From the NCBI GenBank assembly GCA_044225365.1, contig JBGAIQ010000044.1, positions 1 to 47,909 of the forward strand: 47,909 bases of DNA, given 5' to 3'. The stretch comes from Planctomycetota bacterium (GTDB lineage Bacteria; Planctomycetota; B15-G4; JADJEK01). How positions within the stretch are numbered: position 1 is the stretch's first letter; each line of letters begins with the position of its first letter. This document shows positions 9,829-38,594 of this stretch, piece by piece. The position numbers were made by a program, and so were the translations under genes. The notes under the pieces are model-generated. The model ran no database searches. It was not told where the DNA came from and saw nothing but the letters and a program-made list of their open reading frames with translations.

Positions 9829-11886
9829 TCAGGGGCTGGTGCCGACGACCGCGTTGCTGAACGCAACGCCGAGTGCACCAGCGGGATCGACGATGACGAA
9901 TTGGGCGAATACCGTCGAGCCCGAAGGTGCCCCTGGCCAGGTGAAGATCAACGACACATTGCCGAGCGAGTCCGTCGGAACCGGAACGACGACGGTCGGA
10001 TTGGGAACGAGGATCCCGGACAACAGGGGCAGATTGACTGGCGACGCCCCGAGGACGATGAAGGCGGCAGCGTTCGACGCGGCATGCGAGAGTCCGAATC
10101 CGACCGCGGTGTTCACGGCGAACGTCCCACCGCCGACGAGGAGCGGCACGCCGTTGCCACCGAGTGTCCCGTTTCCGAGGTCCTGCCACGGTGAACTCAC
10201 CCCGGTCACGGGGAGCGAGATCTCGGACGTGTTGCCGGCGGCGTCGGTCGCGGTGGCGGTGATCGCGGCCCCAAGGACATTGCCGTTCATCACGAACACG
10301 AACGACCCGTTCGGCGAAGGAGTCACGTGGCCGATGTACGTGCGGGCCTCGACGGTGGCGCCCGGCGGAAACGGCGGAGGATTCGTGAACAGCTCGATCG
10401 TCGCGAGTTCCGCATTCGGTGAGTCGAGGCTGCCGAGCACGACCGTCTTTGGACCGCTCGGCGAGGGGCCAGAGATCGCAGAATGGAGCACGGGCCAATT
10501 CATCGAGAGGTTCGGCCCGGTGTCTCCGTCGCCGGCATCGTTCGGAGTCGGTCCGTCTGCGCCGAGATCGATTCCCAGACCACCTTGGGAGTGATTCGAG
10601 TGGATCGAATTCTGCGAGATCCTCGTCCCGGTCGCCATGCGTCGGACCACGATTCCGTCCGCCAGGTTGTTTGCGATGACGTTTCCGCTCCCACCAAAAC
10701 CATCCGCCGCGATCCGATTGTCGTTCGAAGGTGGAAGCAAGGGATCCAGTGAGCCGACGGTGATTCCGATCTCGTTCGGGATCGCGAACAGCCCGTCGCG
10801 ATCGGTGCCGACGAAGTTGCCGCCGATGGCATTCTCGTCCGCACCTTCGCGGATCTCGATCCCGCTGCGTGGATCGTTTGGAGCTGCGAGTCCCTTGAAG
10901 CCGCCGATGGCGTTCGACGCGATCCGGTTCTGATCGCCGAAGACCTGGATGCCGGCTCTCGCGGGAGTCGGGGCGGCCGCCGTTCCCGTGAAGTCGAGGC
11001 CGATGAAGTTTCCCTCGACGAAGTTGAAATCGCTCTCGATCCGGATGCACGCGCCGTCCGTCGATTGGTATCCGACACCGAACACGTAGTTCGCATACCC
11101 AGGTCCGGCGAGACCGATCACGTTGCTCGAGGCGTTTCCTGTCACACGCACGCCATTGCGCCCGCCCGTGATCACGTTGCCGTAGACGTGGTTGTCGCTC
11201 GTCAGTCCGAGCGCGGTTCCGGTCGGTCCCTGGATCAAGATGCCGTCTCCGAGCGCGTCCAACGTATTCGAATCGGCTGGATCGGGTGTGCCAACGTTGT
11301 TGTGGTCGCCCTGGATCCGAATCGCCGCCTGCACGCCCCGGATCACGCATCGCGTGATCGTGACGTGATCCGCGTCCGGCAGGAGGTCGATGCCGTAGTT
11401 GCGGCCATCCATGTCGCCGAGGCCGATGATCCGGTCGTAAGCCGACGACACCGCGAAGGTGCCACTGTCGACGAGCGCGGGATTCGAGACCGTGCTGTGG
11501 AACAACACCTCGGCGCCGTTCGGATTGGTGTCGCCCGTGAATGCCGTCTGCGTGGTGCCGTCGATGGTCGTCCCATCGTCCGTGATGCGGAAGGGGACTC
11601 CCGCATTCACGATGACGGGCCCGACGACTCCCGCGCCCCATTGGCCGACCGCCAATCGGAAGCCGATCGTTTGCGGTCCGGGAGTGTTGTTCGCGGCGAT
11701 GCAGGCCTCGCGCATCGAGATCTTCCCGTCGGGGCCGGGAAGATCGGAGACTCGTTGCAGTCCACCGAAGTCGACGACGTCGTTGACCGTCGAGACCGAG
11801 ATCACTTGCGATTGGGCCAGCGCAGGGAACGCGAGACAACAAACGAGACGAAGCGATGTGATCCTCGGGATGACGCGGTCGAGCAT
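9829..11886 (-). CDS. Secreted parallel beta-helix protein (CSLREA-like N-terminus) with shared C-terminal domain
   Basis: RBS GGAAGG before ATG 11886, signal peptide, ISMREACIAANN, GNFIG/GNVIA repeats, LGIDLGADGPTPND, ATATDAAGNTSE. Confidence 0.82.
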   Translation of the reverse strand: MLDRVIPRITSLRLVCCLAFPALAQSQVISVSTVNDVVDFGGLQRVSDLPGPDGKISMREACIAANNTPGPQTIGFRLAVGQWGAGVVGPVIVNAGVPFRITDDGTTIDGTTQTAFTGDTNPNGAEVLFHSTVSNPALVDSGTFAVSSAYDRIIGLGDMDGRNYGIDLLPDADHVTITRCVIRGVQAAIRIQGDHNNVGTPDPADSNTLDALGDGILIQGPTGTALGLTSDNHVYGNVITGGRNGVRVTGNASSNVIGLAGPGYANYVFGVGYQSTDGACIRIESDFNFVEGNFIGLDFTGTAAAPTPARAGIQVFGDQNRIASNAIGGFKGLAAPNDPRSGIEIREGADENAIGGNFVGTDRDGLFAIPNEIGITVGSLDPLLPPSNDNRIAADGFGGSGNVIANNLADGIVVRRMATGTRISQNSIHSNHSQGGLGIDLGADGPTPNDAGDGDTGPNLSMNWPVLHSAISGPSPSGPKTVVLGSLDSPNAELATIELFTNPPPFPPGATVEARTYIGHVTPSPNGSFVFVMNGNVLGAAITATATDAAGNTSEISLPVTGVSSPWQDLGNGTLGGNGVPLLVGGGTFAVNTAVGFGLSHAASNAAAFIVLGASPVNLPLLSGILVPNPTVVVPVPTDSLGNVSLIFTWPGAPSGSTVFAQFVIVDPAGALGVAFSNAVVGTSP

Positions 11887-11974
11887 GGCGATTCCTTCCG
11901 GCACGAGTGCAATGCAATCCAGCAGCGTGCCGCTCTTCACACGCCGGGGAGTGTACACCGAATGGAAATCGCTG

Positions 11975-14008
11975 TCAGGGGCTCGTGCCGACGACCGCGT
12001 TACTAAAGGTGACGCCGAACAGCGTTCCGGGGTCGACGATCACGTATTGGGCGTAGAGCTTGGTGCCCGTGGGCGCGCCCGGCCAGTTGCCGTGAACGAC
12101 GATACGGCCTTGCGAATCGGTCGGCAGTGCCACGACGAACGTCGGGCTCGGCACGAGGACGGTGCCGAGGACGGGAATGTTCGCGGCCGTGCTCCCGAGG
12201 ACGAGGAGCGCCGTCGAGAGCGGCTTCGCGGATTCGAGGCCGAGCCCGACCTCGGTATTGGGATCGAGCGTGCCCGCGCCGACGAGACGGGGTGTGCCGG
12301 CGCTGCCCACCGTCGCGTGACCGAGGTCGAGCCACGGCGACGCGGTGGCGATCGCGGCGCCGCCGATCTCGGACGTGCTGCCCTGCGCGTCCGTCGCGGT
12401 TGCCGTGATCGCGAGACCGGAATAATCCGCGGGCAGCACGAGCACGAACGATCCGTCGGGCAGCGGCGAGAAGCGGCCGAGCGAAGTCTTCGCTTCGACG
12501 ACCTCATTGCCGATTGGCGCGGGATTCACGAAGAGTTCGACGCTGCAGGTCGAGGGACTCGGCGTGTCGAGCGAGCCGAGGACGACCGTCGACGCCGGCG
12601 TCGCGACTGCGGAATGCAGGACGGGCGAGTTCAATAGGTCGTTCGGGCCGGCGTCGCCGTCGCCCGTGTCGTTCGCGGTGGGGCCGTCCGCGCCGAGGTC
12701 GATTCCGATCGCGCCCGTCGCGTGATTCGAATGGATCGAGTTGCCCATGATCTCGTTCTCGGTCGCGTTGAGGCGTACGACGATCCCGCCGGCCTCGTTG
12801 CTCGCGATGAGATTGGCGTCGGCGGGCGCGGCGCCCCCGATGATGTTGTGAGCCGGCGCGGGCAGCGACGCGTCGAACGGTCCGATGTCGATGCCGACGT
12901 GATTCGGAATCGCGATCGTTCCCGTCGCGTCGACGCCGATCCAATTGCCGGCGATGACGTTGTTCTCCGCGCCCTCGCGCAGCGCGATGCCGGCTTGAAC
13001 CGAGAGGAATCCGGTGAGCCCCGTGATGCCGCCGATCACGTTCTTGCGGACGACGTTGCCGTCGCCGTAGATCTCGATGCCGACGTCGCCGACGTCGTTC
13101 GCGGGGAGCGTACCCGTCGGATCCGTGCCGATGAGATTGCCGTAGACGAAGTTCCCGTTGCTCTCGATGCGCACCATCGCGCCGTCGGGAGTGCCGTCCT
13201 CCTGGAGGTAGCCGGCGCCCGAGATCAGGTTGCCCTCGCCGGGCTGGAATCCGCCGATCTGGTTCTGGGTCGCATTGCCGACGATCTGCACGCCATTGCC
13301 CTCGCCGGTGAGGACGTTGCCGAAGACGAGATTCGAGTCCGCGGAATTCGGCGTGAGGCCCTGGATGCGAAGACCATCGGCGAGGGACGTGAGTCGATTC
13401 CCATCGCCCGGCGACGTTCCGCCGATCGTGTTGTGATCGCCTTGCACGCGGATCGCGGCGAACACGCCCTTGATGACGCAGCGGGTGATGACGCAGTCCT
13501 GCGCCTGCGGCTGCAGATCGATGCCGTAGTTGCGGCCGTCCATATCACCGAGCCCGATCAAGATGCAGCCGTCACCCTTCACGGCGAACGTCCCGCTCTG
13601 GATGAGCGGCGGATCGATGACGGTGCTGTGGAACGAGACCTCGGCGCCGTTCGGATTCGTGTCGCCCGTGAAGGCAGTCTGTGTCGTGCCGTCGATGGTG
13701 GTGGCGTTGTCGTTCACCGGGAACGACTGGCCAGCGTTGATGATCACGGGTCCCGTCACTCCGGTTCCCCATTGCCCCGCCGGGATGTGGAAGCCGATCG
13801 TCTGCGGACCGGGTGTGTTGTTCGCCGCGATGCAGGCCTCGCGCATCGACACCTTGCCGTCGGGGCCCGGCAGGTCCGCGACGGTCTTGCTGCCCGTGAA
13901 GTCGCTCACGTCGGCGACGGTGGTGACGAAGAGGGTCTGTCCGAAACACGGCGCGGTCGCCGCGACGAACGCGAACGACGCGAGAGATCGTCTCGTGAGT
14001 GAATTCAC
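11975..14008 (-). CDS. Secreted parallel beta-helix protein, tandem paralog of 9829-11886
   Basis: GTG at 14008 after GGAGG. Near-identical blocks with the neighbour (DLPGPDGKxSMREACIAANNTPGPQTIGF, TTIDGTTQTAFTGDTNPNGAEV, FSNAVVGTSP). Confidence 0.82.
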   Translation of the reverse strand: MNSLTRRSLASFAFVAATAPCFGQTLFVTTVADVSDFTGSKTVADLPGPDGKVSMREACIAANNTPGPQTIGFHIPAGQWGTGVTGPVIINAGQSFPVNDNATTIDGTTQTAFTGDTNPNGAEVSFHSTVIDPPLIQSGTFAVKGDGCILIGLGDMDGRNYGIDLQPQAQDCVITRCVIKGVFAAIRVQGDHNTIGGTSPGDGNRLTSLADGLRIQGLTPNSADSNLVFGNVLTGEGNGVQIVGNATQNQIGGFQPGEGNLISGAGYLQEDGTPDGAMVRIESNGNFVYGNLIGTDPTGTLPANDVGDVGIEIYGDGNVVRKNVIGGITGLTGFLSVQAGIALREGAENNVIAGNWIGVDATGTIAIPNHVGIDIGPFDASLPAPAHNIIGGAAPADANLIASNEAGGIVVRLNATENEIMGNSIHSNHATGAIGIDLGADGPTANDTGDGDAGPNDLLNSPVLHSAVATPASTVVLGSLDTPSPSTCSVELFVNPAPIGNEVVEAKTSLGRFSPLPDGSFVLVLPADYSGLAITATATDAQGSTSEIGGAAIATASPWLDLGHATVGSAGTPRLVGAGTLDPNTEVGLGLESAKPLSTALLVLGSTAANIPVLGTVLVPSPTFVVALPTDSQGRIVVHGNWPGAPTGTKLYAQYVIVDPGTLFGVTFSNAVVGTSP

Positions 14009-14158
14009 TTCCCTGCCTCCATGCAATCCCGGGGTTCTCGTGCGATTGGGTGCGATGCGGCGCAGTGTGGGCGCGCAAGCGGTGCAGCAGGTCCATCGTA
14101 CTCCCGCCGAACCTTTGTGGAGTGAGGGATCGAGTAGAATCCGCCGTGAGGTACTCGC

Positions 14159-15748
14159 ATGCGGCGAAGCGGATCCTTCCGATCGTTCTCGCTCTTTCTC
14201 GTCCTGCTCGGCACGCAGTGGGCTCGTGGCTCGGAGATCCACGTCCCGAACGATCAACCCACGATCGGAGCCGCGATCGTGGCCGCGAATGTGGGCGACA
14301 GCGTGATCGTCGCCACGGGGACGTATGCCGAATCGATCGATTTCCTCGGCAAGGCGATCACCGTGACGAGCGAATCCGGGCCCGCCATCACGCGGCTCGT
14401 CACTACCGGTTTCGACGACGGCGTCCGTTTCGTGCACGGCGAGACGGCGACTTCGCGGCTCGTGGGTTTTCGCCTCACGAATCCAGCGATGGGAGCGGCG
14501 ACGAAGATCGTGCGGATCGCGAATGCGTCGCCAACGATCGAAGGCTGCGAGATCGCGAACTGCGTCTACACGGTGCCGACTTGCCCGTACATCGATGCCG
14601 GCGTCTTGGTGCGGGTCGATGGCGGTTCGCCGCGTTTCGTCGCATGCGAGTTCCGCGACAACGAGTTCCACCTGCCATGTTCGGAAACCGTCCTGCGCGG
14701 CAGCGTCCTCGCGGCGAATTCCGCCACGGTCACTCTCGAGGAGTGTCTCGTCCAGCGCAATCGGATCTTCGCCACGAGTTCGTCTGCGGTGCTCGACGGC
14801 GCCCTCGTCGCGGGGGGCTCGCTCACCGTCGTCGACTGCACCATCGAGGACAACGATCGTGGGGGGGTCGACATGCAGCTCGGTTCATTGTCCGTCGTGC
14901 GATCGACCCTACGACGCAACGGCTCGCGCCCCGCGATCCGCGCGTTCTCCGCGAGCACGGCGACGATCGAGCGCTGCGAGATCACGGAGAATCCGCACGA
15001 AGGCTTCGTCCTTGGGCGTTCGCTCGCGGCCCACGTCGACCACTGCACCTTCGCGGCGAACGGATCCTCCGCGAGCCCCTTCGACCTCTCCGCCGAGTCG
15101 AATCCGCTCGCGCCGTGGACCGGTTCGCTCGTCGTGTCGGACTCCATCGTCTTCGGCGGTGGGATCGAAGCGGAACTCGGCGCGTTCGGGACGACCGTCG
15201 GGTTCAGCGACGTCGTGAACGGCTTCGCGGGTATCGGGAACATCTCCCTCGATCCGATGTTCCTCGATCCGGCGTCGCACGATTTCCGCCTCGCGCCCGG
15301 TTCGCCCTGCATCGATGCCGCGGACCCGAACGGCGAGATCGATCCGGATGGCACGCGCGGCGACATGGGGGCGTACGCCTACGATGCCTGGACCATCGTC
15401 GAGGCGGGCGACGCCGGCAGCCTGGTCGGTGAGGGATCGCTGCATCCGAATTCGGCATTCGAAATCGGCGTGGTCGGCGCGCCGGCCCGAACCGGCGGAC
15501 TCCTGCTCGTCGCAGCCTCGATGGCGAACTCTCCGGTCGGTGGCGCGACCCTGGTGCCGGGGCTGCCCGCCGTGTTCGTGGCGTTCGAGACCGATGCGCT
15601 CGGCGGCGCGACGTTCCAAGGTCGTTGGCCGAAGGATTCCACGGCCAGGGATCGGATCGTCACGCAGGCCGCGTTCCCGTCCCAGTGGATGGGAGGGTCG
15701 TGCGCCGTGTGCGCGCTCTCGGATGGTCTCGTCGGCATTGCGCCGTGA
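14159..15748 (+). CDS. Secreted pectin-lyase-fold beta-helix protein with shared C-terminal domain
   Basis: Signal peptide, IHVPNDQPTIGAAI..GTYAESIDFLGKAITV, DPMF..DFRLAPGSPCIDAADP..DPDGTRGDMGAY. Divergent from 14008. Confidence 0.82.
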   Translation: MRRSGSFRSFSLFLVLLGTQWARGSEIHVPNDQPTIGAAIVAANVGDSVIVATGTYAESIDFLGKAITVTSESGPAITRLVTTGFDDGVRFVHGETATSRLVGFRLTNPAMGAATKIVRIANASPTIEGCEIANCVYTVPTCPYIDAGVLVRVDGGSPRFVACEFRDNEFHLPCSETVLRGSVLAANSATVTLEECLVQRNRIFATSSSAVLDGALVAGGSLTVVDCTIEDNDRGGVDMQLGSLSVVRSTLRRNGSRPAIRAFSASTATIERCEITENPHEGFVLGRSLAAHVDHCTFAANGSSASPFDLSAESNPLAPWTGSLVVSDSIVFGGGIEAELGAFGTTVGFSDVVNGFAGIGNISLDPMFLDPASHDFRLAPGSPCIDAADPNGEIDPDGTRGDMGAYAYDAWTIVEAGDAGSLVGEGSLHPNSAFEIGVVGAPARTGGLLLVAASMANSPVGGATLVPGLPAVFVAFETDALGGATFQGRWPKDSTARDRIVTQAAFPSQWMGGSCAVCALSDGLVGIAP

Positions 15749-15848
15749 ATCGTTGCCAATCGCGCGTCGTGCTCCTTACGCTGCAAGATCCATCTCAACC
15801 GCTGTATCGATCGCCGGGCGCGAGCCACGCGCGATCAAGAGTTTCGCC

Positions 15849-18811: not shown

Positions 18812-18830
18812 ACGAACGCGTCCGGAGCCG

Positions 18831-22320: not shown

Positions 22321-23787
22321 ATGAGAACTCGTTCGTGGTGGCTCGGTGTCGCATTCGTCGCCCGAATCGCGTCCGCGCAGACCTATACGGTGGCGGACGC
22401 CGATCCAACGGGACTTCTTCTGAGCGGGTACGCGGTAGCGGCCACCGACGATTCAGTACTCTGCAATGGATCTCCCGCCTCGGCGCCGACCGTCATCTCG
22501 GCCGGTCTCGTCTGTCAACTCGCGACGTGCACGGTGCAGCCCGCGCCATTCGGTTGGATCGAGGCCTACGCCAGGAGCCGAAATCCTTTCGGCACCGTCG
22601 TCGGAACCGGGTCGACCTGGACGACGTTCCCGGTCGTGGTTCTCGAGCATCGTGCGGTGCAGTGGGTTTCAGACCAGCCGATCGATCTCAATCAGTCGCT
22701 GCCCATCGGATCTCCATTCCTTTGGGAATCCGCGAACTCGATCAACTCAGCCGGCGACATCGTGGGAACGGCGATCTTCACCGCGGCATCTGGCGCCAAG
22801 AGTCTCGTCGGTGTCCAGTTCCACCAGGGCGCATTGACGGCGCTCGGTGATCTGCCGGGTGCGGCGTCGGGTTCGGGCGTGACACCGATTCGAATCGACG
22901 ACGATGGTTGGATCATCGGAGACGGCGCCTTCGTAACGGGCTCGCTCGCCACGTCGCACGCCTTCGAGTGGAGCAACGGAGTGTTCCACGATCTCCACGA
23001 CACGAGCGTCCTCCACGGCAAGGCGAGCCATGCGACGGGCGCGAATCGATTCCATCAGATCTGCGGGTACGGGAACTTCTCGGCCACGGCGGGTTCGCCT
23101 TCCCACGCCGTGCTGTGGCAAGGTCCTTCGATCGTCGACCTGGGAACGCTGATGGGCGGAGAGTCGGCTGCGTTCGCGATCAACGATCTCGGCGAGATCG
23201 TGGGACGGTCGTTCGTGCCGGGATCTCCCTTCACGCCGTCGCCGAGTGCGGTCGTGTGGCGAAATGGAGTCCCGATCCAGTTGAACTCACTCCTTCCGGT
23301 GGGGACCGGCTGGACGCTCGAGGAGGCGAACGGCATCGACAACGCGGGTCGAATCGTCGGGCGGGGATGGCGCAATGGGGTGATGCGGCCGTTCGTGCTG
23401 ACGCCCGTGTGCGCGGGCCATTTCTCGAGCTTTGGCGCCGGTTGCGCTCCGGGGGTCGGGGCCGTTCCGGGACTCTTCGCGATCGGCTGCCCGAGTCCTG
23501 GTTCCACGTTCGCTTTGACGATCGACCACGGAACACCGCAGAAGCAGGGAGTCCTTCTCACCGGCATCGGCACGAGCCCGCTCGCCTTCTCGGCGTCGTG
23601 CTCGCTCGCGATCGCGCCGCTGGCGCCGGTCATCGTGCCGATCACGCTGGACTCGGATGGCGATCTCTTCTTGACCGTCCCGCTTCCAACGGGTTTGCCG
23701 ATCGTCGATGTGAACCTCCAGGCGATCCTGCCCGGGTCGAACGGACTCCTCGGTTCGACGAACGCGCTCGCGCTCCATATCGAATGA
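22321..23787 (+). CDS. Secreted HAF-type extracellular-repeat protein with shared C-terminal domain
   Basis: RBS GGAGG, signal peptide, repeats such as [52 protein letters not shown]. Confidence 0.82.
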
Positions 23788-26484: not shown

Positions 26485-26568
26485 TCGGGAACGGGGTTCC
26501 GCGCCGTCTTCTCGAATCGACGGAACCTTGGGGAAACCTCACCCGTCGGAGCACCCTGGCGGACCGCG

Positions 26569-26577
26569 TGGTATGCT
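26569..26577 (+). promoter_or_regulatory. Extended -10 promoter (TGGTATGCT) upstream of the S8 peptidase
   Basis: Matches the TGnTAnnnT motif seen in several intergenic regions of this window. Confidence 0.45.
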
Positions 26578-26845
26578 TCTCGCGATCCGATGTTCAGGGA
26601 GCGTCCGGCCGGCGCCGGCGTTCGATACGACCTGTCGACCAGCGGAACAGTTCGATGCGCTTTCCACGCGTCCGAATCTGTCTTGCAGTGTTCGGGGGCA
26701 GCGCCTCCGACGATCTGGACGGATGCCCGCAACGTCGCTTCCGCGACGCGTCCTGCGCGCATCGATCCCAGCCCGCCGGTTCGATCGGATTCGATCCCAT
26801 TCCCCGTTCCTTCCATCCCCCGAAGTCCGTGATGAGGAGTCCTCG

Positions 26846-29800
26846 ATGAGAGCGTCGCTGCTTTCGACTCTCGTGGCGGCGAGCGCAGGGTTCATCCCCT
26901 TCGCGTTCGCGCAGCCCGTTACGTCCCCGATCGATACTGCGATCCCGAATTCGCATATCACGTCCGGTTCATTCCACCGCCTCCTCGTGGCGAAGGACGA
27001 TCCCGCGATCGCGGTGATCGAGGAAATGAACGCGGCAGTCTATGTCGAGGACTACGCATCGTTCGCGATGGTGGTCGTCGACGAAACCAAGCTCGGTGGA
27101 CGCGAGGGCCTGCTCGCTCTCGGTCCGGCGATTCGTGACGATCTCGGGCTCGTCAACGTCAATGGCTACGCGCTCGACGGCGCCGACGCCGTCGCGAAGG
27201 CGAAGACACTCGCGCGAATCCCACTCGATCTGCGACAAGCGACGACGCCGCCCGCGGACGGTGAGAGTCGTCTCTACATCGTCCAGTTCACGGGCCCCGT
27301 GAAGGACGAGTGGCTCGCGGCGCTGAAGGCCACCGGCGCACACGTCATCACCTACATGGCGAACGACGCCTACGTCGTGAAGGTCGACCCCGTCGCGAAT
27401 GCCGCGCTCTCCGCGCTCGAACGCCTGCCGTTCGTGATGAGCAAGAGCGCATACGATCCCGCGATGAAGCTGCGTCCTGAACTGCGCCCGCCGTTCATCA
27501 GCAGCTCCGACACCTATCCGATCACGGTCCAGGTGATCGCGGACTCCGAAGGAATGGCCTTCGCGAATTCGTTCGCGAGCAAGGGCTACAAGGTCGTGGT
27601 CCAGCCCTGGACGGTGCTCGACTACATCAACGTCGGACTCGAGGTCAGCGGCAAGACCGTCCTCGAACTCGCCAAGGATCCGCACGTCTTCGCCGTCGAA
27701 TCGACCCTCACGCCGAAACTGTTCCGCTACGACGAGCGTCAGGGCGTGATCATGGCGGGCAACCTCAACGCTGCCGGAACGCAGCCGACGACCGCCGATT
27801 ACCTGAACTGGCTCGCGACGAAGGGACTCCCCGGCGCGGGAGGCGATCCGTTCAACTTCGTCGTCGACGTGACGGACGACGGCGTCGACAAGGGCAACAC
27901 CACGCAAGTGAACAACGAGTTCCGCGTCGACGGCAATGCGGCGAACGCGAGCCGCGTGGCGTACGCGTTCAACTACTCGGGCGACGCGACCGCCGACGGT
28001 GTTGCCGGCCACGGCAACATCAACGCGTCGATCATCGGCGGGTACAACAACCTGACCGGCACGGCGTACGAGGACTCGTTGCTCTACAACTACGGCCTCG
28101 GTATCGCGCCGTGGGTCCTTCTCGGCAACAGTAAGGTCTTCGCGAACTCCGGCTCGGGCGTGTTCAATCAGCCGACCGGCACGCGCATGCAGAACGCCTA
28201 CAATGCGGGTGCCCGCATCTCGAGCAACTCGTGGGGCTACACGACCGGCACGACCTACAACACCGATTCGCAGGCGCACGACTCCGCCGTCCGCGACGCC
28301 GCTCCGGGCACCGCGGGCAATCAGGAGCTGTCGATCGTGTTCGCGGCCGGCAACAGCGGCTCGGCGGCATCGACGGTCCATCCGCCGGGCACGGCGAAGA
28401 ACATCATCACGGTCGGTGCATCCGAGAACTACCGGCCGACGGGAACCGATGGTTGCGGCATCGCGAATACTGGCGCGGACAGCGCGCTCGACATCATCTC
28501 GTTCAGCTCCCGCGGTCCGACCAGCGACGGCCGCAAGAAGCCGGAGATCGTGGCGCCGGGCACGCACATCCAGGGCGCCGCGTCGCAGGCCACGGGATAC
28601 AACGGCACGGGCGTGTGCAATCAGTACTTCCCGGCCGGCCAGACGCTCTACGCCTGGTCCTCGGGCACGAGCCATTCGACGCCGGCGATCTCTGGCGCGG
28701 CGGCGCTCGTCCGGCAGTGGTACGGATTGAACGGCCTCGGCACGCCGAGTCCCGCGATGGTGAAGGCCGCGCTCATCACGAGCACGACGTATCTCACGGG
28801 CGTCGGCGCGAACGACACCTTGTGGTCGAACAGTCAGGGCTTCGGTCGCGTGAACATGGGGCGGGTTTTCGACTCGACGGCGAAGATTCGCGTCGATCAG
28901 AGCCAGGTCCTCGGCACGACGGGACAGACCTACACGGTGTCGGGCAACATCGCCGACGCCGGACAGCCGTTCCGCGTCACGTTGGTCTACACCGACGCGC
29001 CGGGTCCAACGACCGGCAATGCGACGGTCAACAACCTCGACCTCGAGGTGACCGTCAACGGCACGCTCTATCGCGGCAACGTCTTCAGCGGCGCGAACTC
29101 GGTCGCGGGTGGCGTCGCCGATGCGAAGAACAACACCGAATGCGTGTTCCTGCCGGCCGGCACGACGGGCTCGTTCTCGATCGTGGTGCGCGCGACGAAC
29201 ATCGCGGGCGATGGCGTCCCCGGCAACGGCGACACCACCGACCAGGACTTCGCACTCGTCGTCCACAACGGCAGTGCGGGCGCGCCGGTTCCCGACTACT
29301 CGCTGTCGGTCACTCCGGCGGCGCAGACGATCACGCAGGGCGGCTCCACGTCCTACACGGTGAACGTGGCGGGAGTGAACGGCTACGCGGGCACGGTGAA
29401 CCTCTCGGCTTCGCCTGCAATCTCGGGTGTGACGTATTCGTTCGCTCCGACGTCGATCACGGGAAGCGGCAGCGCGACGCTGACCGTCACCACGACCGGC
29501 ACGGCCGCGACGGGCACGAAAACGCTCACGATCACGGGCAACGACGGAACGCTCGTGCATACCGGTTCCGCGTCCCTCACGATCAACGCGCCGATCACCA
29601 GCGGCGGGATCAAGACCGCGAGCGCCTCGCCCGCGGCGGCGATCCCCGACAACAACGCGACGGGCGTCGCGAGCACGATCGCGATCGCGGACTCGCTCAC
29701 GATCAGCTCGATCTCGGTGACGACGGGCATCACGCATGCGGCGAAGGGCAACCTCACCGTCACGCTGACCGGCCCGGACGGGACGAGCGCCATCCTCCAC

Positions 29801-30352
29801 AACAAGACGGGTGGAGCCACGGCGAATCTCAATACGACGTTCGCCATCGCGACGGCGCCGGCTCAGGCGCTCACGGTGTTCAATGGCAAGAGCACCGCGG
29901 GCAACTGGACGCTCCGCGTGACGGATACGACTGCGGGCAGCACCGGTACCTTCAACTCGTGGACGATCACCTTCAACGGTGAGCAGTCCCTGAGTCCGGC
30001 GCTCGCGATCCCCGACAACAACACGACGGGCGTGACGAGCACGATGAACTTCGCGCAGACGGGCCTCGTGGCCTCGGTGCGCGTCGCCGTGAACATCACG
30101 CACACCTGGAAGGGTGACCTCGAAGTGTCACTCATCGCCCCCGACGGAACGACCGTGATCCTTCACAACCGTACGGGCAGCTCGACGGACAACGTGATCA
30201 CGGAGTATCCGGATCTCACGGCGTCCGCGCAGTCGCTCGCGGTACTGAACGGCAAGCAGATCAACGGCGCCTGGAAGCTCAAGGTGCGCGACCTCGCTGC
30301 GGCGGACGTCGGAACGTTGAACTCCTGGACGCTGTCGCTCGGCGCCCAGTAA
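26846..30352 (+). CDS. Secreted S8 subtilisin-like serine peptidase with Ig-like region and two proprotein-convertase P domains
   Basis: RBS GAGGAG, signal peptide, VTDDG (Asp), GHGNINAS (His), FAAGNSG, TAKNIITVGA, FSSRGP, SGTSHSTP (Ser). Two AIPDNN..GxWxLxVxD P-domain repeats. Confidence 0.9.
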   Translation: MRASLLSTLVAASAGFIPFAFAQPVTSPIDTAIPNSHITSGSFHRLLVAKDDPAIAVIEEMNAAVYVEDYASFAMVVVDETKLGGREGLLALGPAIRDDLGLVNVNGYALDGADAVAKAKTLARIPLDLRQATTPPADGESRLYIVQFTGPVKDEWLAALKATGAHVITYMANDAYVVKVDPVANAALSALERLPFVMSKSAYDPAMKLRPELRPPFISSSDTYPITVQVIADSEGMAFANSFASKGYKVVVQPWTVLDYINVGLEVSGKTVLELAKDPHVFAVESTLTPKLFRYDERQGVIMAGNLNAAGTQPTTADYLNWLATKGLPGAGGDPFNFVVDVTDDGVDKGNTTQVNNEFRVDGNAANASRVAYAFNYSGDATADGVAGHGNINASIIGGYNNLTGTAYEDSLLYNYGLGIAPWVLLGNSKVFANSGSGVFNQPTGTRMQNAYNAGARISSNSWGYTTGTTYNTDSQAHDSAVRDAAPGTAGNQELSIVFAAGNSGSAASTVHPPGTAKNIITVGASENYRPTGTDGCGIANTGADSALDIISFSSRGPTSDGRKKPEIVAPGTHIQGAASQATGYNGTGVCNQYFPAGQTLYAWSSGTSHSTPAISGAAALVRQWYGLNGLGTPSPAMVKAALITSTTYLTGVGANDTLWSNSQGFGRVNMGRVFDSTAKIRVDQSQVLGTTGQTYTVSGNIADAGQPFRVTLVYTDAPGPTTGNATVNNLDLEVTVNGTLYRGNVFSGANSVAGGVADAKNNTECVFLPAGTTGSFSIVVRATNIAGDGVPGNGDTTDQDFALVVHNGSAGAPVPDYSLSVTPAAQTITQGGSTSYTVNVAGVNGYAGTVNLSASPAISGVTYSFAPTSITGSGSATLTVTTTGTAATGTKTLTITGNDGTLVHTGSASLTINAPITSGGIKTASASPAAAIPDNNATGVASTIAIADSLTISSISVTTGITHAAKGNLTVTLTGPDGTSAILHNKTGGATANLNTTFAIATAPAQALTVFNGKSTAGNWTLRVTDTTAGSTGTFNSWTITFNGEQSLSPALAIPDNNTTGVTSTMNFAQTGLVASVRVAVNITHTWKGDLEVSLIAPDGTTVILHNRTGSSTDNVITEYPDLTASAQSLAVLNGKQINGAWKLKVRDLAAADVGTLNSWTLSLGAQ

Positions 30353-30373
30353 TCGATCGCACGCCGAATCGAT

Positions 30374-30410
30374 GACGGGCGGAGAGAGCCGAGGGTTCTC
30401 TCCGCCCGTC
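30374..30410 (+). terminator. Strong stem-loop, probable intrinsic terminator
   Basis: GACGGGCGGAGAGA...TCTCTCCGCCCGTC inverted repeat about 20 nt after the S8 stop. The U-tract is weak. Confidence 0.7.
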
Positions 30411-30452
30411 GCTCTTGCAGGCCACGACCTGAGCGCCGGCCTCGCAAACTCG

Positions 30453-30461
30453 TGTTACACT
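30453..30461 (+). promoter_or_regulatory. Extended -10 promoter (TGTTACACT)
   Basis: TGnTAnnnT just after the terminator and upstream of the gene at 30648. Confidence 0.45.
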
Positions 30462-30647
30462 GTCCGCGCGCACGCACTGCGTGCGATGAGTGAGTCGAAC
30501 TTCAGGCCGTTCCGACGAACGAACGACATCCGCGACCGTTGACACGCGACGCTCTCCGGCGTGAGAACCAAGAGCGCGTGTGGAAGCGGCATGTCGATCG
30601 GGTGCGACGTATGAAGTTCTCGCACCGTTCTCAGGAAGAGAGATCCG

Positions 30648-32162
30648 ATGCAGCGCGCACCCGACGTCCACACCGTCGAAGCGAAGGCTGTCGAGTCGCG
30701 ATTCGCGTCTCGCGCCCGTTTCCTCATGGTCGTATTCAGCATCGTCGTTGCGGTGATCGCGGTGGAGTCCGCGCGTGGCCGCCAGTCACCGGTGATCCCG
30801 AAGCCGGTGATCCACGCCTCGATCGGTCTCGTCACGATCGGCGACGGGGTGAATAGTCACGGCCTCTTCGACATCACGGACTTCCTGCTGAACCAACTAC
30901 CCGATACGGCGCAGGCACTCGACGTCGCGTTCAACAGGTCGTCGCGAGTCGTGTTCCTCGCCGGGACGTTTCCGTTCCAACGACCGTTCCAGAGTTCTCG
31001 CAGCTCGATCGCCATCGAAGCCGATCCGGCCGCGCGCTTCGTTCCCGCGAACAGCAAGACGGTCGGTCTGTTCGACCTCACGGGCAACGACGTGTCGATC
31101 ACGGGAATCCACCTCGACGTGACCCAGGCGATCCCGTCGCAGACGGCGATCCGTTTCACGGGGAAGAACGCGGCCGTTCGCAACTGCAAGTTCGAGGTCA
31201 GCACTGCGAACGGCACCGCGGCGCAGCCGATGGTGGTGCTGAAGTTCGAAGGCGCGGTACGAAAGTCCGTCACCGGGAATCTCTGGCTACCGAATGCGGG
31301 CGTCGTGTGCCTGCAGTCGATCGACGGCAATGGACTCCAGTTCATCGGCAACGAGATCAGCAACGGCGTCGACGGCGGCTTTCCGGAAGGTTTCTCCACG
31401 CGCTCGTGCTTCCGCGGAGTCGACCTGGTGCGCGAGGAGTGGTCGACGCTCACGAGCAACAAGTTCTTCGGGCTTGGACTGCCGAGCGTCGACAAGGTGG
31501 AGTCGATCCTGCGGTATCAGGGCGACACGACCACCGAGGCGGGTCACATCGTCATCGCGTCGAATCTCTTCGAGGCGATCGCATCCGATCACATGATCTG
31601 GTTGCGGGGATGCCAGTGGTTCGACATCTCGAGCAACATCATCGGCCCGGCGACTTCGTTCCCCGATCAGGCGGGCGAAGCGGCGCTCACGATCGTGGGT
31701 GAGGACGGCGCGGACGGTGGCCAGCCATCGGGCGGCGGGATCATCTGCGGAAACGACATCCACAACTCCGCGGAGTCCGGGAGCGATGGTTCCGCGATCT
31801 ACCTCGAGGCCGCGGGCTGCGTCTCGATCACGAGCAACAACTTCGAATACCAGCGCGAGAAATACGTCGTGCGCGTCGATTCGAATACGTGTCCGCAGTT
31901 GACGGTCCAGAACAACCGCTTCATGGGCTACGCCGCGTCGGGCAACACACCGATCAGTCCATTGTTCTTCAGCAACGAAGCGGCGAACGGGATCGTGGTG
32001 GGTCAGAACTCGTTCAGCGGATTCATCGGCGGCATCGTCACGGGGAATCCAAGCGGGGTAAAGGTCTTCCTCGCCGGGCTCATGGACACGACCACCAAGG
32101 CGCCACCGACCGGCTCGACGCTCATTCAGAACCTGACGACGAACGTGAAGACGTCGCCGTAG
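30648..32162 (+). CDS. Exported right-handed beta-helix repeat protein (pectin-lyase-like)
   Basis: N-terminal hydrophobic segment and repeated strand-turn motifs (VTGNL, IGNEI, TSNKF, ASNLF, SSNII, CGNDI, QNNRF). Start may be 30726. Confidence 0.75.
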   Translation: MQRAPDVHTVEAKAVESRFASRARFLMVVFSIVVAVIAVESARGRQSPVIPKPVIHASIGLVTIGDGVNSHGLFDITDFLLNQLPDTAQALDVAFNRSSRVVFLAGTFPFQRPFQSSRSSIAIEADPAARFVPANSKTVGLFDLTGNDVSITGIHLDVTQAIPSQTAIRFTGKNAAVRNCKFEVSTANGTAAQPMVVLKFEGAVRKSVTGNLWLPNAGVVCLQSIDGNGLQFIGNEISNGVDGGFPEGFSTRSCFRGVDLVREEWSTLTSNKFFGLGLPSVDKVESILRYQGDTTTEAGHIVIASNLFEAIASDHMIWLRGCQWFDISSNIIGPATSFPDQAGEAALTIVGEDGADGGQPSGGGIICGNDIHNSAESGSDGSAIYLEAAGCVSITSNNFEYQREKYVVRVDSNTCPQLTVQNNRFMGYAASGNTPISPLFFSNEAANGIVVGQNSFSGFIGGIVTGNPSGVKVFLAGLMDTTTKAPPTGSTLIQNLTTNVKTSP

Positions 32163-32169
32163 GGCCGGT

Positions 32170-32178
32170 TGATATCCT
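32170..32178 (+). promoter_or_regulatory. Extended -10 promoter (TGATATCCT)
   Basis: TGnTAnnnT upstream of the multi-thioredoxin gene. Confidence 0.45.
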
Positions 32179-32293
32179 CTGCGGAGTCCGCGACCGGCGC
32201 TTCCGCGTCGTCGCTGCGCTCCTTCGCCGACCTCGCGTCCAACGCATCCTCGAGGTCGCGATCCTCCTCACGAATCCAAGATCGGATGGGTCG

Positions 32294-35218
32294 ATGATCC
32301 TGCAGGCCAAACTCCTACGGTCCATCCTCGCGGCGTTGCTCTTCGCAGTTCCAAGCGTTCGCCTCGCGGCTCAGGAGTCGGCGCTCCTGCAGGCCGGCGT
32401 GGCGGCTCCCAACTTCGAGTCCGTCGATCTCTCCGGCAAGGAGATCGCTCTCTCGAGCTTTGCGGGAAAGGTCGTGGTCCTCGACTTCTGGGCGACGTGG
32501 TGCGGTCCGTGCATCCAGTCGTTGCCCCACGTGCAGGAGGTGGCGAAGGAGCAGAAGGCGAACGGGGTCGTGGTGCTCGCGGTCTGCACCAGCGACACGC
32601 GTGCGCGCTACGAAGCGTGGATGAAGGATCACGCCGGGAAGTACCCCGACATCGTCTTTTCCTGCGATCCGTTCGATCGCGGCAGCAAGCAGTTCGACGA
32701 TCGAGCATCGTCGAAGCTCTATCACGTCGGCGGCCTGCCGACCAAGTTCGTGATCGGCAAGGACGGCAAGATCGCGATGAGCATCGTCGGCGGCGACGAT
32801 CAGGACGTTCGGCTCGAGGCCGGGCTGAAGCGCGCGGGGATTCCGATCGAGTCGCAAACGGCACAGCGGGGCGAAGAGCAGGCGCGAAAGGCCGCCGAAG
32901 AAGAAGCGGCTCTCGCCGCGGAGCTCGCCGCGAATCCCCGACCGTCGTTCATGATTCAGCTCGGCGCATTGAAGACGGGTGAAGCGGTCCCCGACTTCGC
33001 GCTCGTCGGCGCCGATGGCAAGGAGTTCACGCTCGCTTCCCTACGCGGCAAACCACTCGTGATCGCGGTCTCGTGGCACGAGATCGTGCCCATGGACAAG
33101 CTCGACGAAATCGCTCGCCGCTACGGCGGCTACGGTGTGCGGACCCTCGAGGCGATGGTCTTCACGTCTCGTCCGGACTTCAAGGGCTGGATCGAGGCGA
33201 ATCCTGGCGAGCACACGTTCCATCTCGGCGTCGACCCGATGGGCAAGTTCGAAGGCAACCCGGCGACGACGACGCAAGAGGAACGGATGGCGTTCCACGA
33301 GAAGACCGTCGTCGCCAAGTTGTTCGGTTCCGGCATGTATCCCGGGATGCCGATCGGACTCGTCATCGATCGCGAAGGGCGATTCGTCGGCGGCTTCTCG
33401 TTCGGGAGCGAGATGAACGAAGGCGTCTCGAACTTGCTCCTCCGCGCCGGAGTCGCGCTCGATGCGAAGGACGAGCCGGTCAAGATTGCTTCCGCGGCGG
33501 ACTTCGTGATCGCGCCGCCACCGCCGCCGGAGGCGCCGGTCGAGCGTCTCGCGGTGGGAGCGGTCGCGCCCGATTTCGAAGCACAAGACCTCGAGGGGCG
33601 AACCGTGAAGCTGTCGGACTTCTCGGGCAAGATCATCGTTCTCGACTTCTGGGCAACGTGGTGCGGCCCGTGCAAGGCCTCACTGCCTCACACGCAGGAA
33701 GTGGCTTCGAAGTACAAGGACCAGGGCGTGGTCGTGCTCGCGAACTGCACCAGCGATGCGCGCAAATCGTTCGAAGTTTGGGTGCGGGCGAAGCAGGGCG
33801 ACTATCCCGACATCGTCTTCACGCACGACAAGGCCGAGAAGGGCGAAGGGCGCGCCTCGCACGCTCTGTATGGCGTTGGCGGCATTCCGCAGCAGTTCGT
33901 GATCGGCAAGGACTTCAAGGTCAAGGCGATCGTCGACGGCTACGCCGCAGGAGAGGTCCTGCTCGAGGGTGCGATCGCGAAGGCGGGCGTCACGGTCGAT
34001 CCTGCGACGCTCGAGAAGGCCGAGGCCGACCAGCGGAAGCGGGATGCTGATTCGACGCGCAATGCGAAGAAGTCGACTGCAGCGGTGAGTATGGCGGGGA
34101 GCGTGGCGTTGGCACCCGTCGCCGAGATAGCGGCTCCTTCCAACCTGATCGGCAAGACACCTCCGCCGTGGAAGGTCGCCAAGTGGGTGAAGGGACAGCC
34201 GATCACCGAGTTCGAGAAGGGCAAGGTCTTCGTGGTCGACTTCTGGGCGACGTGGTGCGGACCGTGCAAGGCAGCGATTCCGCACCTCACGGAGCTCAGC
34301 AAGCAATTCGAAGGCAAGGTCGAGGTCATCGGAGTCAGCATCTCGGAGCGGCAGAAGGACCCGAGCGACACGTCGTACATCGACCTGGTTCAGCAGTTCG
34401 TCGACAAGCAGGGCGATCGCATGGCCTACCGAGTCGCCGTCGACACTCCCGACAAGGCGATGTACACGACGTGGTTCAAGCCGACGGGTACCGGCGGGAT
34501 CCCGACCGCGTACATCATCGATGCGAAGGGCCTCGTCGCGTGGACGGGAATTGGCGACCCCAAGGTCGTGCAGCGCATCGTCGAGGCGGTGCTCGCCGGG
34601 ACGTTCGACCCGAAGCAGGAAGCGGAGCTGCAGGCGAAGCTCGAGGCGGAGGCGCAGCAACGTGCTGCGGCCGACATCGCGAAGGCGCGCGAGTCGGGGA
34701 ACGCGGCCGATGAAAAGGTCCCCGGATATCGCGCGGCGATGGAGCGCGGTGACACGGCCGCGGCGCTCGCGGCGCTCGACGCGGCGTTCGCGGCCGATCC
34801 CAAGCTCGAAGCGACGGGGCCCTATCAGTGGAAGTTCATGCTCCTGCTGCGTTGCAACAAGCCGGACGAAGTGGATGGCTACGTGCGCGACCTCTTGAAG
34901 CGCATGCCCGACGACGACGACGTGATCGGATTTGCGTCGGCCTGCATCGTGGCCTGTAGCGAGGATGCCCCGCGCTTCGACCCACGCCTCGCACTCGAGT
35001 GCGCGCAGAAGACTTTGAATGCTGCGAAGCCGGACAGCCGTTGGCAACAGTTCGCGCGCTGGCGCCTCGGATGGGCCCTGTATCACACGGGGGACAAGGC
35101 GAACGCGATCGTCCAGATGAAACAGGCGCGCGACGATGTGAACCGGTTGAAGGACAAGATCGACTTCGGCGATCTCGGACAGGAGTGCGAGGACGCCCTG
35201 CGTTCGTTCGCGAAGTGA
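32294..35218 (+). CDS. Secreted multi-domain TlpA/redoxin protein (3 WCGPC domains, 1 degenerate domain, helical C-terminus)
   Basis: Signal peptide; DFWATWCGPC three times; a fourth redoxin-like unit (PDFALVGADGKEFTLASLRGK) without CxxC. Confidence 0.88.
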   Translation: MILQAKLLRSILAALLFAVPSVRLAAQESALLQAGVAAPNFESVDLSGKEIALSSFAGKVVVLDFWATWCGPCIQSLPHVQEVAKEQKANGVVVLAVCTSDTRARYEAWMKDHAGKYPDIVFSCDPFDRGSKQFDDRASSKLYHVGGLPTKFVIGKDGKIAMSIVGGDDQDVRLEAGLKRAGIPIESQTAQRGEEQARKAAEEEAALAAELAANPRPSFMIQLGALKTGEAVPDFALVGADGKEFTLASLRGKPLVIAVSWHEIVPMDKLDEIARRYGGYGVRTLEAMVFTSRPDFKGWIEANPGEHTFHLGVDPMGKFEGNPATTTQEERMAFHEKTVVAKLFGSGMYPGMPIGLVIDREGRFVGGFSFGSEMNEGVSNLLLRAGVALDAKDEPVKIASAADFVIAPPPPPEAPVERLAVGAVAPDFEAQDLEGRTVKLSDFSGKIIVLDFWATWCGPCKASLPHTQEVASKYKDQGVVVLANCTSDARKSFEVWVRAKQGDYPDIVFTHDKAEKGEGRASHALYGVGGIPQQFVIGKDFKVKAIVDGYAAGEVLLEGAIAKAGVTVDPATLEKAEADQRKRDADSTRNAKKSTAAVSMAGSVALAPVAEIAAPSNLIGKTPPPWKVAKWVKGQPITEFEKGKVFVVDFWATWCGPCKAAIPHLTELSKQFEGKVEVIGVSISERQKDPSDTSYIDLVQQFVDKQGDRMAYRVAVDTPDKAMYTTWFKPTGTGGIPTAYIIDAKGLVAWTGIGDPKVVQRIVEAVLAGTFDPKQEAELQAKLEAEAQQRAAADIAKARESGNAADEKVPGYRAAMERGDTAAALAALDAAFAADPKLEATGPYQWKFMLLLRCNKPDEVDGYVRDLLKRMPDDDDVIGFASACIVACSEDAPRFDPRLALECAQKTLNAAKPDSRWQQFARWRLGWALYHTGDKANAIVQMKQARDDVNRLKDKIDFGDLGQECEDALRSFAK

Positions 35219-35234
35219 CGAGGCGCTGCGTTCG

Positions 35235-35843: not shown

Positions 35844-35871
35844 GGGATCATGGGGCCGGCGGACTCGACAT

Positions 35872-37158: not shown

Positions 37159-37292
37159 TCAGTTCTCTCGATCGAGCCGCTCGTCTTGGGCGAACGAGTA
37201 CCTTACCGCGCGGCTCGAGCGCGCGCGTTCGGCTTCCGGCACTTCCGATCGGGCGGCGGCGTGACCTCGCGAGCGGCCCTGAGTTCGAGCGC

Positions 37293-38594
37293 TCAGCGAA
37301 GAACGATGGTCGCCGTCGGACTGGACAGGACTCCTCCGCCGTGCGCACCCGGGAAGTGTCCCTGGAGATAGAGCTCGACACCGTCGATCCCCGGAGACAA
37401 CCCGGAGCTCGGCAGCGCCGACGGGAGCTGCAGGACCCCGCTCTGCGGAAGGGGGCCGATCACGAGTGGAATCGCGGGGAGCGCGGGGAGGAGCGAGCCC
37501 TTCGAGGCGGGTATCCACACGAGCGAAGGCCCGAGAGACAGCAGCAGGACGAACACGTCGCCGCCCACGCCGTAGACGTCGAGCGTGGCGGTGCCGCCGA
37601 GATGGATCGGAGATTCGACCGAGACGCTGCGATACGTCTCGTCGAACGAGGAGATCGAACCCGAGACCTGTTGGATCGCGGTCCCCATGGATCCGCCCTG
37701 CGGCAAACAATTCGGCGGCGAGAATCCGGGCTGTCCGCCGGAGATCGTCGAATCGAGGCTCGTGAACTTTCCGCCGATCACGATCCCCGTTCCTCCGTCC
37801 TCACCGGGAAGGCAGGCCGTCGCGGTCGCGAGGTCGAGCGTGCCCGCGCCACCGAAACCGCCGAGGATCGTTGCGCCCGCAACGAACAGCGACCCGCTGT
37901 ACAGCAGCACGCCGGGACCGCCCGGTGTCGCCTTGTTGAACAGGAATCCCGTCAAGTCGTAGAGGAAAGCCGGATCGCCGTCGCCGCCCTGGAGGATCCC
38001 GCCGTAGACGCTGACCGTCGAGGTCGAAATCGCGAGTGCACTGCCCTTCGGATAGTTCACTCCGGGGTTCTCGTTCGTGATCGCGTGTCCGATCACGACC
38101 GGACGGACGAGGAGAACTCGCGCGCAGTTCGAGATTCGCACCATGGGCGAGTCGGTGATCGGCGGCGCAGAGTCGTATTGAGCGTTGACGTCTTCGAGAA
38201 CGATCGGTCCTTGATCGTTCGCGAGATCGATCGCCGGCACGTTTCCGAAACCGAGCACGCTCTTGATCCCGCGGACGATGACCTTCTGATTCGCCGCGAC
38301 GTTCGTCACGGTGATGGGTCCGACGCGAACCGTCTGACCGACGGCGGTCCCGGTCGGATTCCCGACGAGCGTCAGGCTCTTTCCCGAGATCGTGCTCGCG
38401 GACGGATAGTCGCCCGCTTCGATGAGGACGATGTCGCCCTCCGTGGCGGCGTCGATGGCCTGTTGAACGGTCGGATAGGAGCCGAGCGGCGGCTGGGTCG
38501 CATCGACGATGAGGACCTTTCCGCCCGCGAGGGCGCTCCCCATCACGAGGGCACTCCCCACCGCAGATCGAAGCATCGGTACGACGCAACGCAT
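37293..38594 (-). CDS. Secreted Gly-rich beta-helix-like protein with shared C-terminal domain
   Basis: RBS GGGAGA before ATG 38594, signal peptide, YPTVQQAIDAATEGDIVLIEAGDY, GGxG repeats. Confidence 0.78.
   Translation of the reverse strand: MRCVVPMLRSAVGSALVMGSALAGGKVLIVDATQPPLGSYPTVQQAIDAATEGDIVLIEAGDYPSASTISGKSLTLVGNPTGTAVGQTVRVGPITVTNVAANQKVIVRGIKSVLGFGNVPAIDLANDQGPIVLEDVNAQYDSAPPITDSPMVRISNCARVLLVRPVVIGHAITNENPGVNYPKGSALAISTSTVSVYGGILQGGDGDPAFLYDLTGFLFNKATPGGPGVLLYSGSLFVAGATILGGFGGAGTLDLATATACLPGEDGGTGIVIGGKFTSLDSTISGGQPGFSPPNCLPQGGSMGTAIQQVSGSISSFDETYRSVSVESPIHLGGTATLDVYGVGGDVFVLLLSLGPSLVWIPASKGSLLPALPAIPLVIGPLPQSGVLQLPSALPSSGLSPGIDGVELYLQGHFPGAHGGGVLSSPTATIVLR

Follow-up and report, generated by a model that had tools for sequence, protein, structure and literature searches.

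A mostly C-terminal, immunoglobulin-like tail domain on diverse, probably exported proteins of Planctomycetota: a candidate envelope-targeting module

The window analysed here is a stretch of 47,909 nucleotides from a Planctomycetota bacterium (contig JBGAIQ010000044.1, assembly GCA_044225365.1). Five of its genes, here called A to E, had been singled out in an earlier note, made from the sequence of the window alone, as encoding signal-peptide proteins of different types that end in a similar domain of about 120 residues. The domain, referred to below as the tail, had been proposed to be a lineage-specific beta-sandwich tag for export or envelope attachment. All five open reading frames (ORFs) were found where the earlier note had placed them (Table 1), and at its likely start each encodes a basic stretch followed by a hydrophobic stretch that, read by eye, resembles a signal peptide. 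A public protein library contained the protein of gene A in the same form of 685 residues. For gene B, the start is likely the GTG at 14008 (677 residues), as inferred from relatives of 677 residues, with the TTG at 14026 as the alternative.

The adjacent paralogues A and B have both the tail and the remainder of the protein (the passenger) in common. Their passengers gave only sub-threshold beta-helix/NosD matches in Pfam (NosD, Beta_helix and Big_6 for A). The passenger of C matched Pfam Beta_helix (55.9 bits) and that of D matched NCBIfam HAF_rpt (42.6 bits), while the passenger of E had no family match in Pfam or NCBIfam. None of the five tails matched either collection, and neither these databases nor the PDB sequences yielded a characterised family, carbohydrate-binding module (CBM) or other, for the tail. 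Current annotation describes the passengers alone and leaves the tail blank.

Table 1. Positions of the genes with a tail or candidate tail in the window, of the tails themselves, and of the secretin genes of the genome. E values are those of the independent 20-tail profile described in the text.
Feature	Position	Strand	Remarks
Gene A	9829..11886	-	Start ATG 11886, 685 residues; signal peptide, beta-helix-like passenger, tail domain
Tail domain of A	9832..10200	-	E 1.9e-24
Gene B	11975..14008	-	Paralogue of A; signal peptide, beta-helix-like passenger, tail
Tail domain of B	11978..12346	-	E 1.7e-25; copy used for the AlphaFold2 model
Gene C	14159..15748	+	Signal peptide, right-handed beta-helix, tail
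Tail domain of C	15410..15745	+	E 4.4e-9; divergent, first strands unmatched
Gene D	22321..23787	+	Signal peptide, HAF repeats, tail (Cys-containing subtype)
Tail domain of D	23431..23784	+	E 4e-21
Gene E	37293..38594	-	Signal peptide, Gly-rich passenger without family match
Candidate divergent tail of E	about 37347-37628	-	C-terminal ~95 residues of gene E
Secretin genes	contigs C103, C73, C95, C41, C76, C51, C33, C40 (two), C15, C90 (two), C63		

Sequence comparison confirmed four of the five tails as members of one family. In BLASTP searches, the tails of A and B were 54% identical over 123 residues (E 5.5e-39) and the tail of C was linked to them at E 4e-11 to 4e-6; for the tails of D and E the best pair was no better than E 0.18. 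Twenty tails from elsewhere in the genome, on contigs other than that of the window, were used to build an independent profile, which was run against 48,423 six-frame ORFs of at least 70 residues. It recovered A, B, C and D (Table 1) and missed the tail of E at E≤10; a reversed-sequence control gave no match at E≤1e-5. An iterative search seeded with A, B and C only converged at 182 ORFs, with D entering in round 2 and E never, and the profile obtained from these seeds matched the tail of C with 54 bits (residues 418-524). The alignment extends beyond the two paralogues to C and D. With filters off, E scored 25.3 bits over residues 359-452 of its 469-residue frame, in register with the family. 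Comparison with hhalign gave a probability of 35% (E 4e-4) for E alone and 18% (E 1.4e-3) for E together with its one detectable homologue, and an AlphaFold2 model of the E tail with this homologue was uninformative (predicted local distance difference test score, pLDDT, 37). The common tail reported for five proteins therefore stands for A, B, C and D; E stays unconfirmed, a weak candidate for a divergent relative and nothing more.

The motif details given in the earlier note also held. Two residues were invariant in 25 aligned tails: the Gln in the strand Y-x-Q and the Gly in the turn D-x-x-G. These two residues and a late Ser were the most informative positions of the profile; the best-conserved positions further included an early Gly-x-Gly, a mid-domain Pro and the Asn that may follow the late Ser. 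No transmembrane helix and no PEP-CTERM motif were found, and a terminal Phe occurred in 3 of 153 tails.

The genome (6.5 Mb, 103 contigs, 94% complete) was scanned with a search seeded with all five tails, which returned 112, 172, 183, 185 and 185 ORFs over five rounds; E dropped out of the set. The 185 domains were distributed over 185 ORFs, one domain per ORF, and roughly one gene in thirty (~3%) carries the tail. Tail genes were spread over 62 of the 103 contigs, and 76 of them had another tail gene within 3 kb. Most domains were C-terminal: the distance from the domain end to the stop codon was at most 5 residues in 153 of the 185, at most 10 in 174 and at most 20 in 177. The median pairwise identity was 33%, and only 14 pairs reached at least 60%; judged from these sequences, the tails are old and diverse. 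Two subtypes, a Trp-type without Cys and a Gly-x-Gly-Cys type, formed a continuum and were mixed across passenger types. The tail subtypes thus do not sort with the passengers.

The passengers were diverse. BLAST clustering of the 176 passengers with C-terminal tails gave 66 clusters, of which the largest had 72 members and 46 were singletons, so that by sequence the passengers are unrelated to each other. A Pfam scan covered 51 tail proteins, 45 with C-terminal and six with non-terminal tails. Among the 45, FG-GAP propellers were found in 14 and other folds in 18 (beta-helix, S8 protease, CHRD, NHL/SGL, pyrroloquinoline quinone-type dehydrogenase (GSDH), WD40, PD40, nuclease, beta-lactamase and TIG), while 13 had no family match. 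No glycoside-hydrolase or polysaccharide-lyase family was detected in the 51 scanned proteins or in the five window proteins. A strict home-made signal-peptide rule was passed by 120 of the 185 tail ORFs and, in a comparison set of 800 other ORFs, by 271, an odds ratio of 3.6; eight of the tail ORFs were truncated at the 5' end by contig ends. Export of the family members is likely on these grounds.

The HAF-repeat passenger of D could be traced in proteins with other C-termini. Among its 70 detectable relatives, two carried the tail and four ended in a PEP-CTERM-like peptide, as identified by regular expression. Several more ended in related hydrophobic-basic anchor peptides recognised by eye, which we take to be of the VPLPA- and GlyGly-CTERM types. 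In protein C, a weak choice-of-anchor Q match (NCBIfam, E 0.04) lay directly before the tail, and other passengers resembled NHL proteins that NCBIfam names PEP-CTERM, with scores below the cut-offs of those models. Because HAF-repeat relatives elsewhere end in PEP-CTERM-like anchors, the tail appears to occupy the slot in which other lineages place a sorting or anchoring signal. The likeness to the PEP-CTERM/exosortase system lies in the position and in the kind of passenger; the tail differs in being a folded domain of 120 residues with neither a transmembrane helix nor a basic end, and the PEP-CTERM model PF07589 matched none of the five proteins and none of 25 tails. In the whole genome, PEP-CTERM gave one weak match, and one exosortase-family gene was found (G000:C45:3095-3556, within a 571-residue open frame). 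Sortase and autotransporter families had no match in the genome, although the positive controls were detected. The genome has almost no alternative tag. Given the single weak PEP-CTERM match, its exosortase is almost without recognisable substrates.

The tail was present in all 42 genomes of the Genome Taxonomy Database (GTDB) class to which the window belongs, a class with a single order. It was likewise found in 41 of 41 sampled relatives, most of which had at least about 100 matches; the 3.5-Mb genome of one relative had 101. Among 301 genomes sampled evenly across the phylum, 59 were positive at E≤1e-5, and tail-positive genomes occurred in at least 16 families outside the class. In line with the earlier description of the tail as lineage-specific, the domain was thus restricted to a part of Planctomycetota. 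All 30 families that were itemised were all-or-none (for instance 5/5, 8/8, 7/7 and 5/5 against 0/15, 0/15, 0/10 and 0/10). In some lineages the tail was sporadic, with 1-3 matches (for instance in G219, G250, G292, G305 and G042). The single match of G292 was very strong (G292:C175:2042-2434, E 4e-35); the second genome sampled from that family, G068, was not among the tail-positive genomes, and the single copy possibly reflects contamination or recent transfer.

In a representative library of 1.84 billion proteins, 21,126 matched at E≤1e-3, of which 9,322 reached E≤1e-10, and in all 150 matches listed the match ended at most 13 residues from the end of the protein. At least one of the library proteins was a stand-alone form consisting of a signal peptide, a short linker and the tail only; most other short matches were gene fragments. 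In the ESM Atlas, the tail adjoined unnamed Planctomycetota clusters without a common Pfam family, and public sources held no informative name for the tail proteins. A full-text literature search, subscription journals not covered, returned no description of this domain, and the passages of three papers on these lineages retrieved by a look-up of terms do not mention it (10.64898/2026.10.26.761892, PMC11032199, PMC12078418). Shared terminal tag domains are known as a kind; what is new is the family itself, together with its composition, the occasional N-terminal use and the phylum in which it occurs.

The proposed beta-sandwich structure agreed with structure prediction. Based on the alignment of 25 tails, the AlphaFold2 model of the tail of B was all-beta, with 11 strands and no helix (pLDDT 95; predicted template modelling score, pTM, 0.88). 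A Foldseek search of the PDB gave no match with a template modelling (TM) score of at least 0.5 (best E 9.7e-4, TM 0.46); the weak neighbours included glycan- and lipid-binding sandwiches, all with TM <0.5. The best match in VIA-align, which is independent of Foldseek, was a macroglobulin (MG) domain of an alpha-2-macroglobulin (Z 8.9, root-mean-square deviation 2.9 A, 101 residues), but only three chains reached Z≥8, which is within the stated background of the tool, where Z 7-8 is typical without a true match. Structural neighbours had 8-18% sequence identity to the tail, and a profile search of the PDB sequences returned antibody chains only, at E≥0.027. One of 25 tails had a weak Big_1 match (E 0.18) in the family scan. 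As modelled, the tail is an immunoglobulin (Ig)-like sandwich without an identifiable solved relative, and what it has in common with MG and other Ig-like domains is the general sandwich topology, that is, the fold class only.

The composition of the tails was unusual. Asp, Glu, Lys and Arg together made up 6.1% of the residues of the tails, 15.2% of the passengers and 24.1% of other ORFs. The tails were rich in Gly (14.6%), Pro (9.1%) and Thr, and poor in Lys and Arg (together 2.4%), Trp (0.8%) and Tyr (1.8%). Many had two to four cysteines; 37 of 153 had none. Such a composition would fit an extracytoplasmic domain. The passengers were also poor in charged residues (Glu 2.2%, compared with 6.1% in other ORFs), which suggests that charge depletion is a general compositional signature of the exported proteins of this organism.

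These properties bear on two further explanations. The first is that it is a structural or folding cap, an end domain that stabilises the passenger, shields it from proteases or assists its folding, and that was inherited as surface genes duplicated. Pre-peptidase C-terminal (PPC) domains provide a comparison for such a role. The compact, confidently predicted fold and the uncharged, Gly/Pro/Thr-rich composition, which with so little Lys and Arg would resist trypsin-like proteases, suit a cap, as does the resemblance of A and B in both tail and passenger. A cap would, however, not be expected to be retained on at least 100 proteins per genome across a whole class, nor does it account for the occurrence of the same domain on at least 66 unrelated passenger clusters, for the mixing of tail subtypes across passenger types, or for the membrane-anchor peptides at the same position in relatives of one passenger type elsewhere. 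The tail also had no Pfam match to PPC, and only one of the 45 scanned proteins with C-terminal tails was a peptidase (S8). We consider a cap very unlikely. The second explanation is that tails associate with one another and so link their passengers into a surface layer or an extracellular matrix. A nearly uncharged surface and a very high copy number, both favourable to homotypic packing, would suit it. Against it, no system-specific repeat-rich scaffold was seen in the ten large non-tail proteins with the most internal repetition. A complex prediction for two tail copies scored 0.06 against a mark of 0.42, which speaks neither for nor against self-binding. Such a lattice seems highly improbable to us.

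The description of the tail as a C-terminal tag held for 177 of the 185 copies. The other eight lay more than 20 residues from the stop codon or were N-terminal, and in the six of these that were scanned the tail preceded another domain: a metallo-beta-lactamase fold, a lamin-tail domain, FG-GAP propellers (in two proteins), a PETase-like hydrolase and DUF5666. In the metallo-beta-lactamase protein, the tail followed directly on the signal-peptide-like start. This architecture was conserved, being full-length and free of stop codons in seven other genomes of two families with 48-57% identity. On this evidence, a free C-terminus is not required. The non-terminal copies favour recognition as a folded domain, as expected of a docking module, over a terminal signal of the kind used in type IX secretion (T9SS).

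The T9SS is nevertheless a close precedent in usage. Its C-terminal domain (CTD) is, like the tail, a cargo-independent Ig-like sandwich that ends many unrelated signal-peptide proteins, amounts to several per cent of the encoded proteins and shows its strongest conservation in the last strands. As far as is known, the T9SS domain is obligately C-terminal and is removed with covalent attachment of the cargo to a surface glycolipid. If the tail were an export signal of this type, a dedicated translocon in the outer membrane would recognise it from the periplasm, after which the tail would be cleaved off. This would agree with its extreme C-terminal position (177/185), its Ig-like sandwich fold, the placement of its best-conserved Gln and Ser-Asn in the last two strands, and a carriage of ~3% of genes, as in a large cargo set (101 matches in the 3.5-Mb relative). 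On the other hand, the tail is larger (11 predicted strands, ~120 residues) and charge-poor, it belongs to Planctomycetota and not to Bacteroidota, and in the conserved architecture it is N-terminal, directly after the signal-peptide-like start, which is disallowed for a C-terminal signal. The obligate position of the T9SS CTD is not shared by the eight copies that are more than 20 residues from the stop. None of the 25 tails matched the T9SS models PF18962 (Por_Secre_tail), TIGR04183 and TIGR04131, or any other NCBIfam sorting-domain model, at E≤10, and the three T9SS models matched none of the five full proteins. SprA_N (PF14349), Por_Secre_tail, Peptidase_C25 (PF01364) and the Slam family SlipAM likewise had no match in the genome, although the control genomes (14 for SprA_N and Peptidase_C25) were equally silent, so that absence of these families is not established by this result. 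We regard a T9SS-like signal as distinctly improbable.

A second precedent is the dockerin (PF00404)/cohesin system, in which one small module is likewise borne by many secreted passengers, mostly at the C-terminus and sometimes at the other end. A usage of this type implies a common receptor. Dockerins have a calcium-binding, helical fold with a duplicated loop-helix motif, and the tail differs from them in being all-beta, without a helix and without a Pfam match. Nothing resembling a cohesin scaffold turned up in the ten repeat-rich proteins that were checked. None of the 25 tails matched PEP-CTERM, dockerin, CBM or PPC models of Pfam and NCBIfam at E≤10.

The use of the tail at either end of a protein, as is usual for binding modules, also raises the possibility that its target lies outside the cell. 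As a lectin-, CBM- or adhesin-like module, it would bind an algal polymer, a particle or another cell. Many passengers are adhesin-like propellers and beta-helices, the weak Foldseek neighbours (TM <0.5) include glycan- and lipid-binding sandwiches, and at least one stand-alone form has no domain other than the tail. The tail has, however, no CBM or lectin family match and, in the 51 scanned and five window proteins, no carbohydrate-active catalytic partner. Its low aromatic content (Trp and Tyr, as given above) also argues against this role. Whereas binding modules are frequently internal or present as repeats, the tail occurs once per protein and, in 96% of cases, at the extreme end. Outward ligand binding is therefore unlikely in our assessment.

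The remaining reading, for which we see about an even chance, is that of an envelope-targeting module which is uncatalogued, independent of the cargo and found in one part of Planctomycetota. The proteins would be exported by Sec, after which the tail of ~120 residues would adopt, outside the cytoplasm, the compact 11-strand Ig-like sandwich that has almost no charge and in many copies several cysteines. The folded tail would be the handle on which a single shared partner takes hold of unrelated passengers, dozens to hundreds in number, and the captured passengers would be retained on, or routed to, the cell surface. This partner may be an outer-membrane or surface receptor, either a protein or a glycan or lipid. 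In favour of this reading we count the many copies at protein ends, the unrelated passengers, the likely export, the slot that anchors take elsewhere, the near-absence of other tags in the genome, the confident all-beta fold, the low charge and the lineage-wide expansion; the non-terminal copies speak for a folded handle over a terminal peptide. A more ambitious form of the proposal, which we hold only tentatively and think rather doubtful, is that the tail acts as an address label for a sorting or attachment system of Planctomycetota that has not been described. Such a system would be the counterpart, in the Planctomycetota-Verrucomicrobiota-Chlamydiota (PVC) group, of the T9SS or of cohesin-dockerin; its candidate cargo would be 100-350 genes per genome, about 3% of the proteome, with a putative receptor or translocon reading the folded, near-uncharged Ig-like domain.

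Several observations weigh against envelope targeting. The export or attachment role proposed in the earlier note is consistent with the protein architecture, but no partner, receptor or machinery for the tail was found among neighbour genes, repeat-rich proteins or secretins. Only two kinds of gene recurred beside tail genes, namely those for Ser/Thr kinases (14 of 439 neighbour ORFs) and those for sigma-fusion proteins (6). Both families are abundant, and neither is envelope machinery. An obvious receptor or scaffold was also absent from the ten most internally repetitive large non-tail proteins, which were a HAMP-array kinase and UvrA-like ABC, BACON/Ig, FG-GAP, beta-helix, GH94, RHS, CarB and CarboxypepD_reg proteins. 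The terminal domain of any large, expanded family of surface proteins would give much the same pattern. The signal-peptide rule was crude, with 34% of the background ORFs passing it and 56% passing a laxer rule, and the choice-of-anchor argument draws on one passenger family and on sub-threshold matches.

Secretins were considered as a route for the tail proteins and rejected. The genome has 13 secretin-domain genes (Table 1), but secretins were present in 298 of the 301 phylum genomes, typically with 4-8 matches each, and tail-positive genomes outside the family of the window have ordinary numbers, so that across the phylum the number of secretins does not follow the tail. In some genomes, the secretin domain lay inside open frames of 3,900-5,100 residues (G153:C26, G296:C86, G205:C44, G221:C1, G080:C13, G106:C2 and G189:C1), which would encode giant secretin-containing proteins.

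The placement of proteins on or beyond the planctomycete outer membrane is poorly understood. A name for the tail would delimit a large set of candidate surface proteins in these bacteria, and the domain, whose Gln, Gly and Ser are invariant, is a concrete bait for a partner search. Since its distribution was all-or-none in the itemised families, comparative identification of the partner is feasible. If the partner were a dedicated machine, it would be a new member of the short list of sorting systems based on a cargo tag.

The other genes of the window were unrelated to the tail genes and included no visible envelope machinery. They encode an aquaporin, prolyl oligopeptidases, two Ser/Thr kinases, a sugar kinase, a subtilase, a triple peroxiredoxin-like protein, a sigma-factor fusion protein and a radical SAM enzyme. 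Adjoining tail gene A, a protein of 945 residues (6907-9744, minus strand) combines a Ser/Thr kinase with a C-terminal FGE-sulfatase-like domain. The subtilase (26336-30352, plus strand; 1,338 residues) has two C-terminal proprotein-convertase P-domains and no tail domain. The peroxiredoxin-like gene (31889-35218, plus strand) is an ORF of ~1,100 residues with three tandem AhpC/TSA-redoxin/thioredoxin-like units, and the sigma-factor fusion (41850-44276, plus strand; 808 residues) has N-terminal sigma-70 regions 2 and 4 of the extracytoplasmic function type, followed by a long unannotated remainder; the six sigma-fusion proteins beside tail genes elsewhere in the genome are similar to it. A free-standing protein of 143 residues (38644-39075, minus strand) matched PF08915 over its full length (E 8e-31); this family is the 'archaea-specific' editing domain of threonyl-tRNA synthetase, and its presence is unusual for a bacterium.

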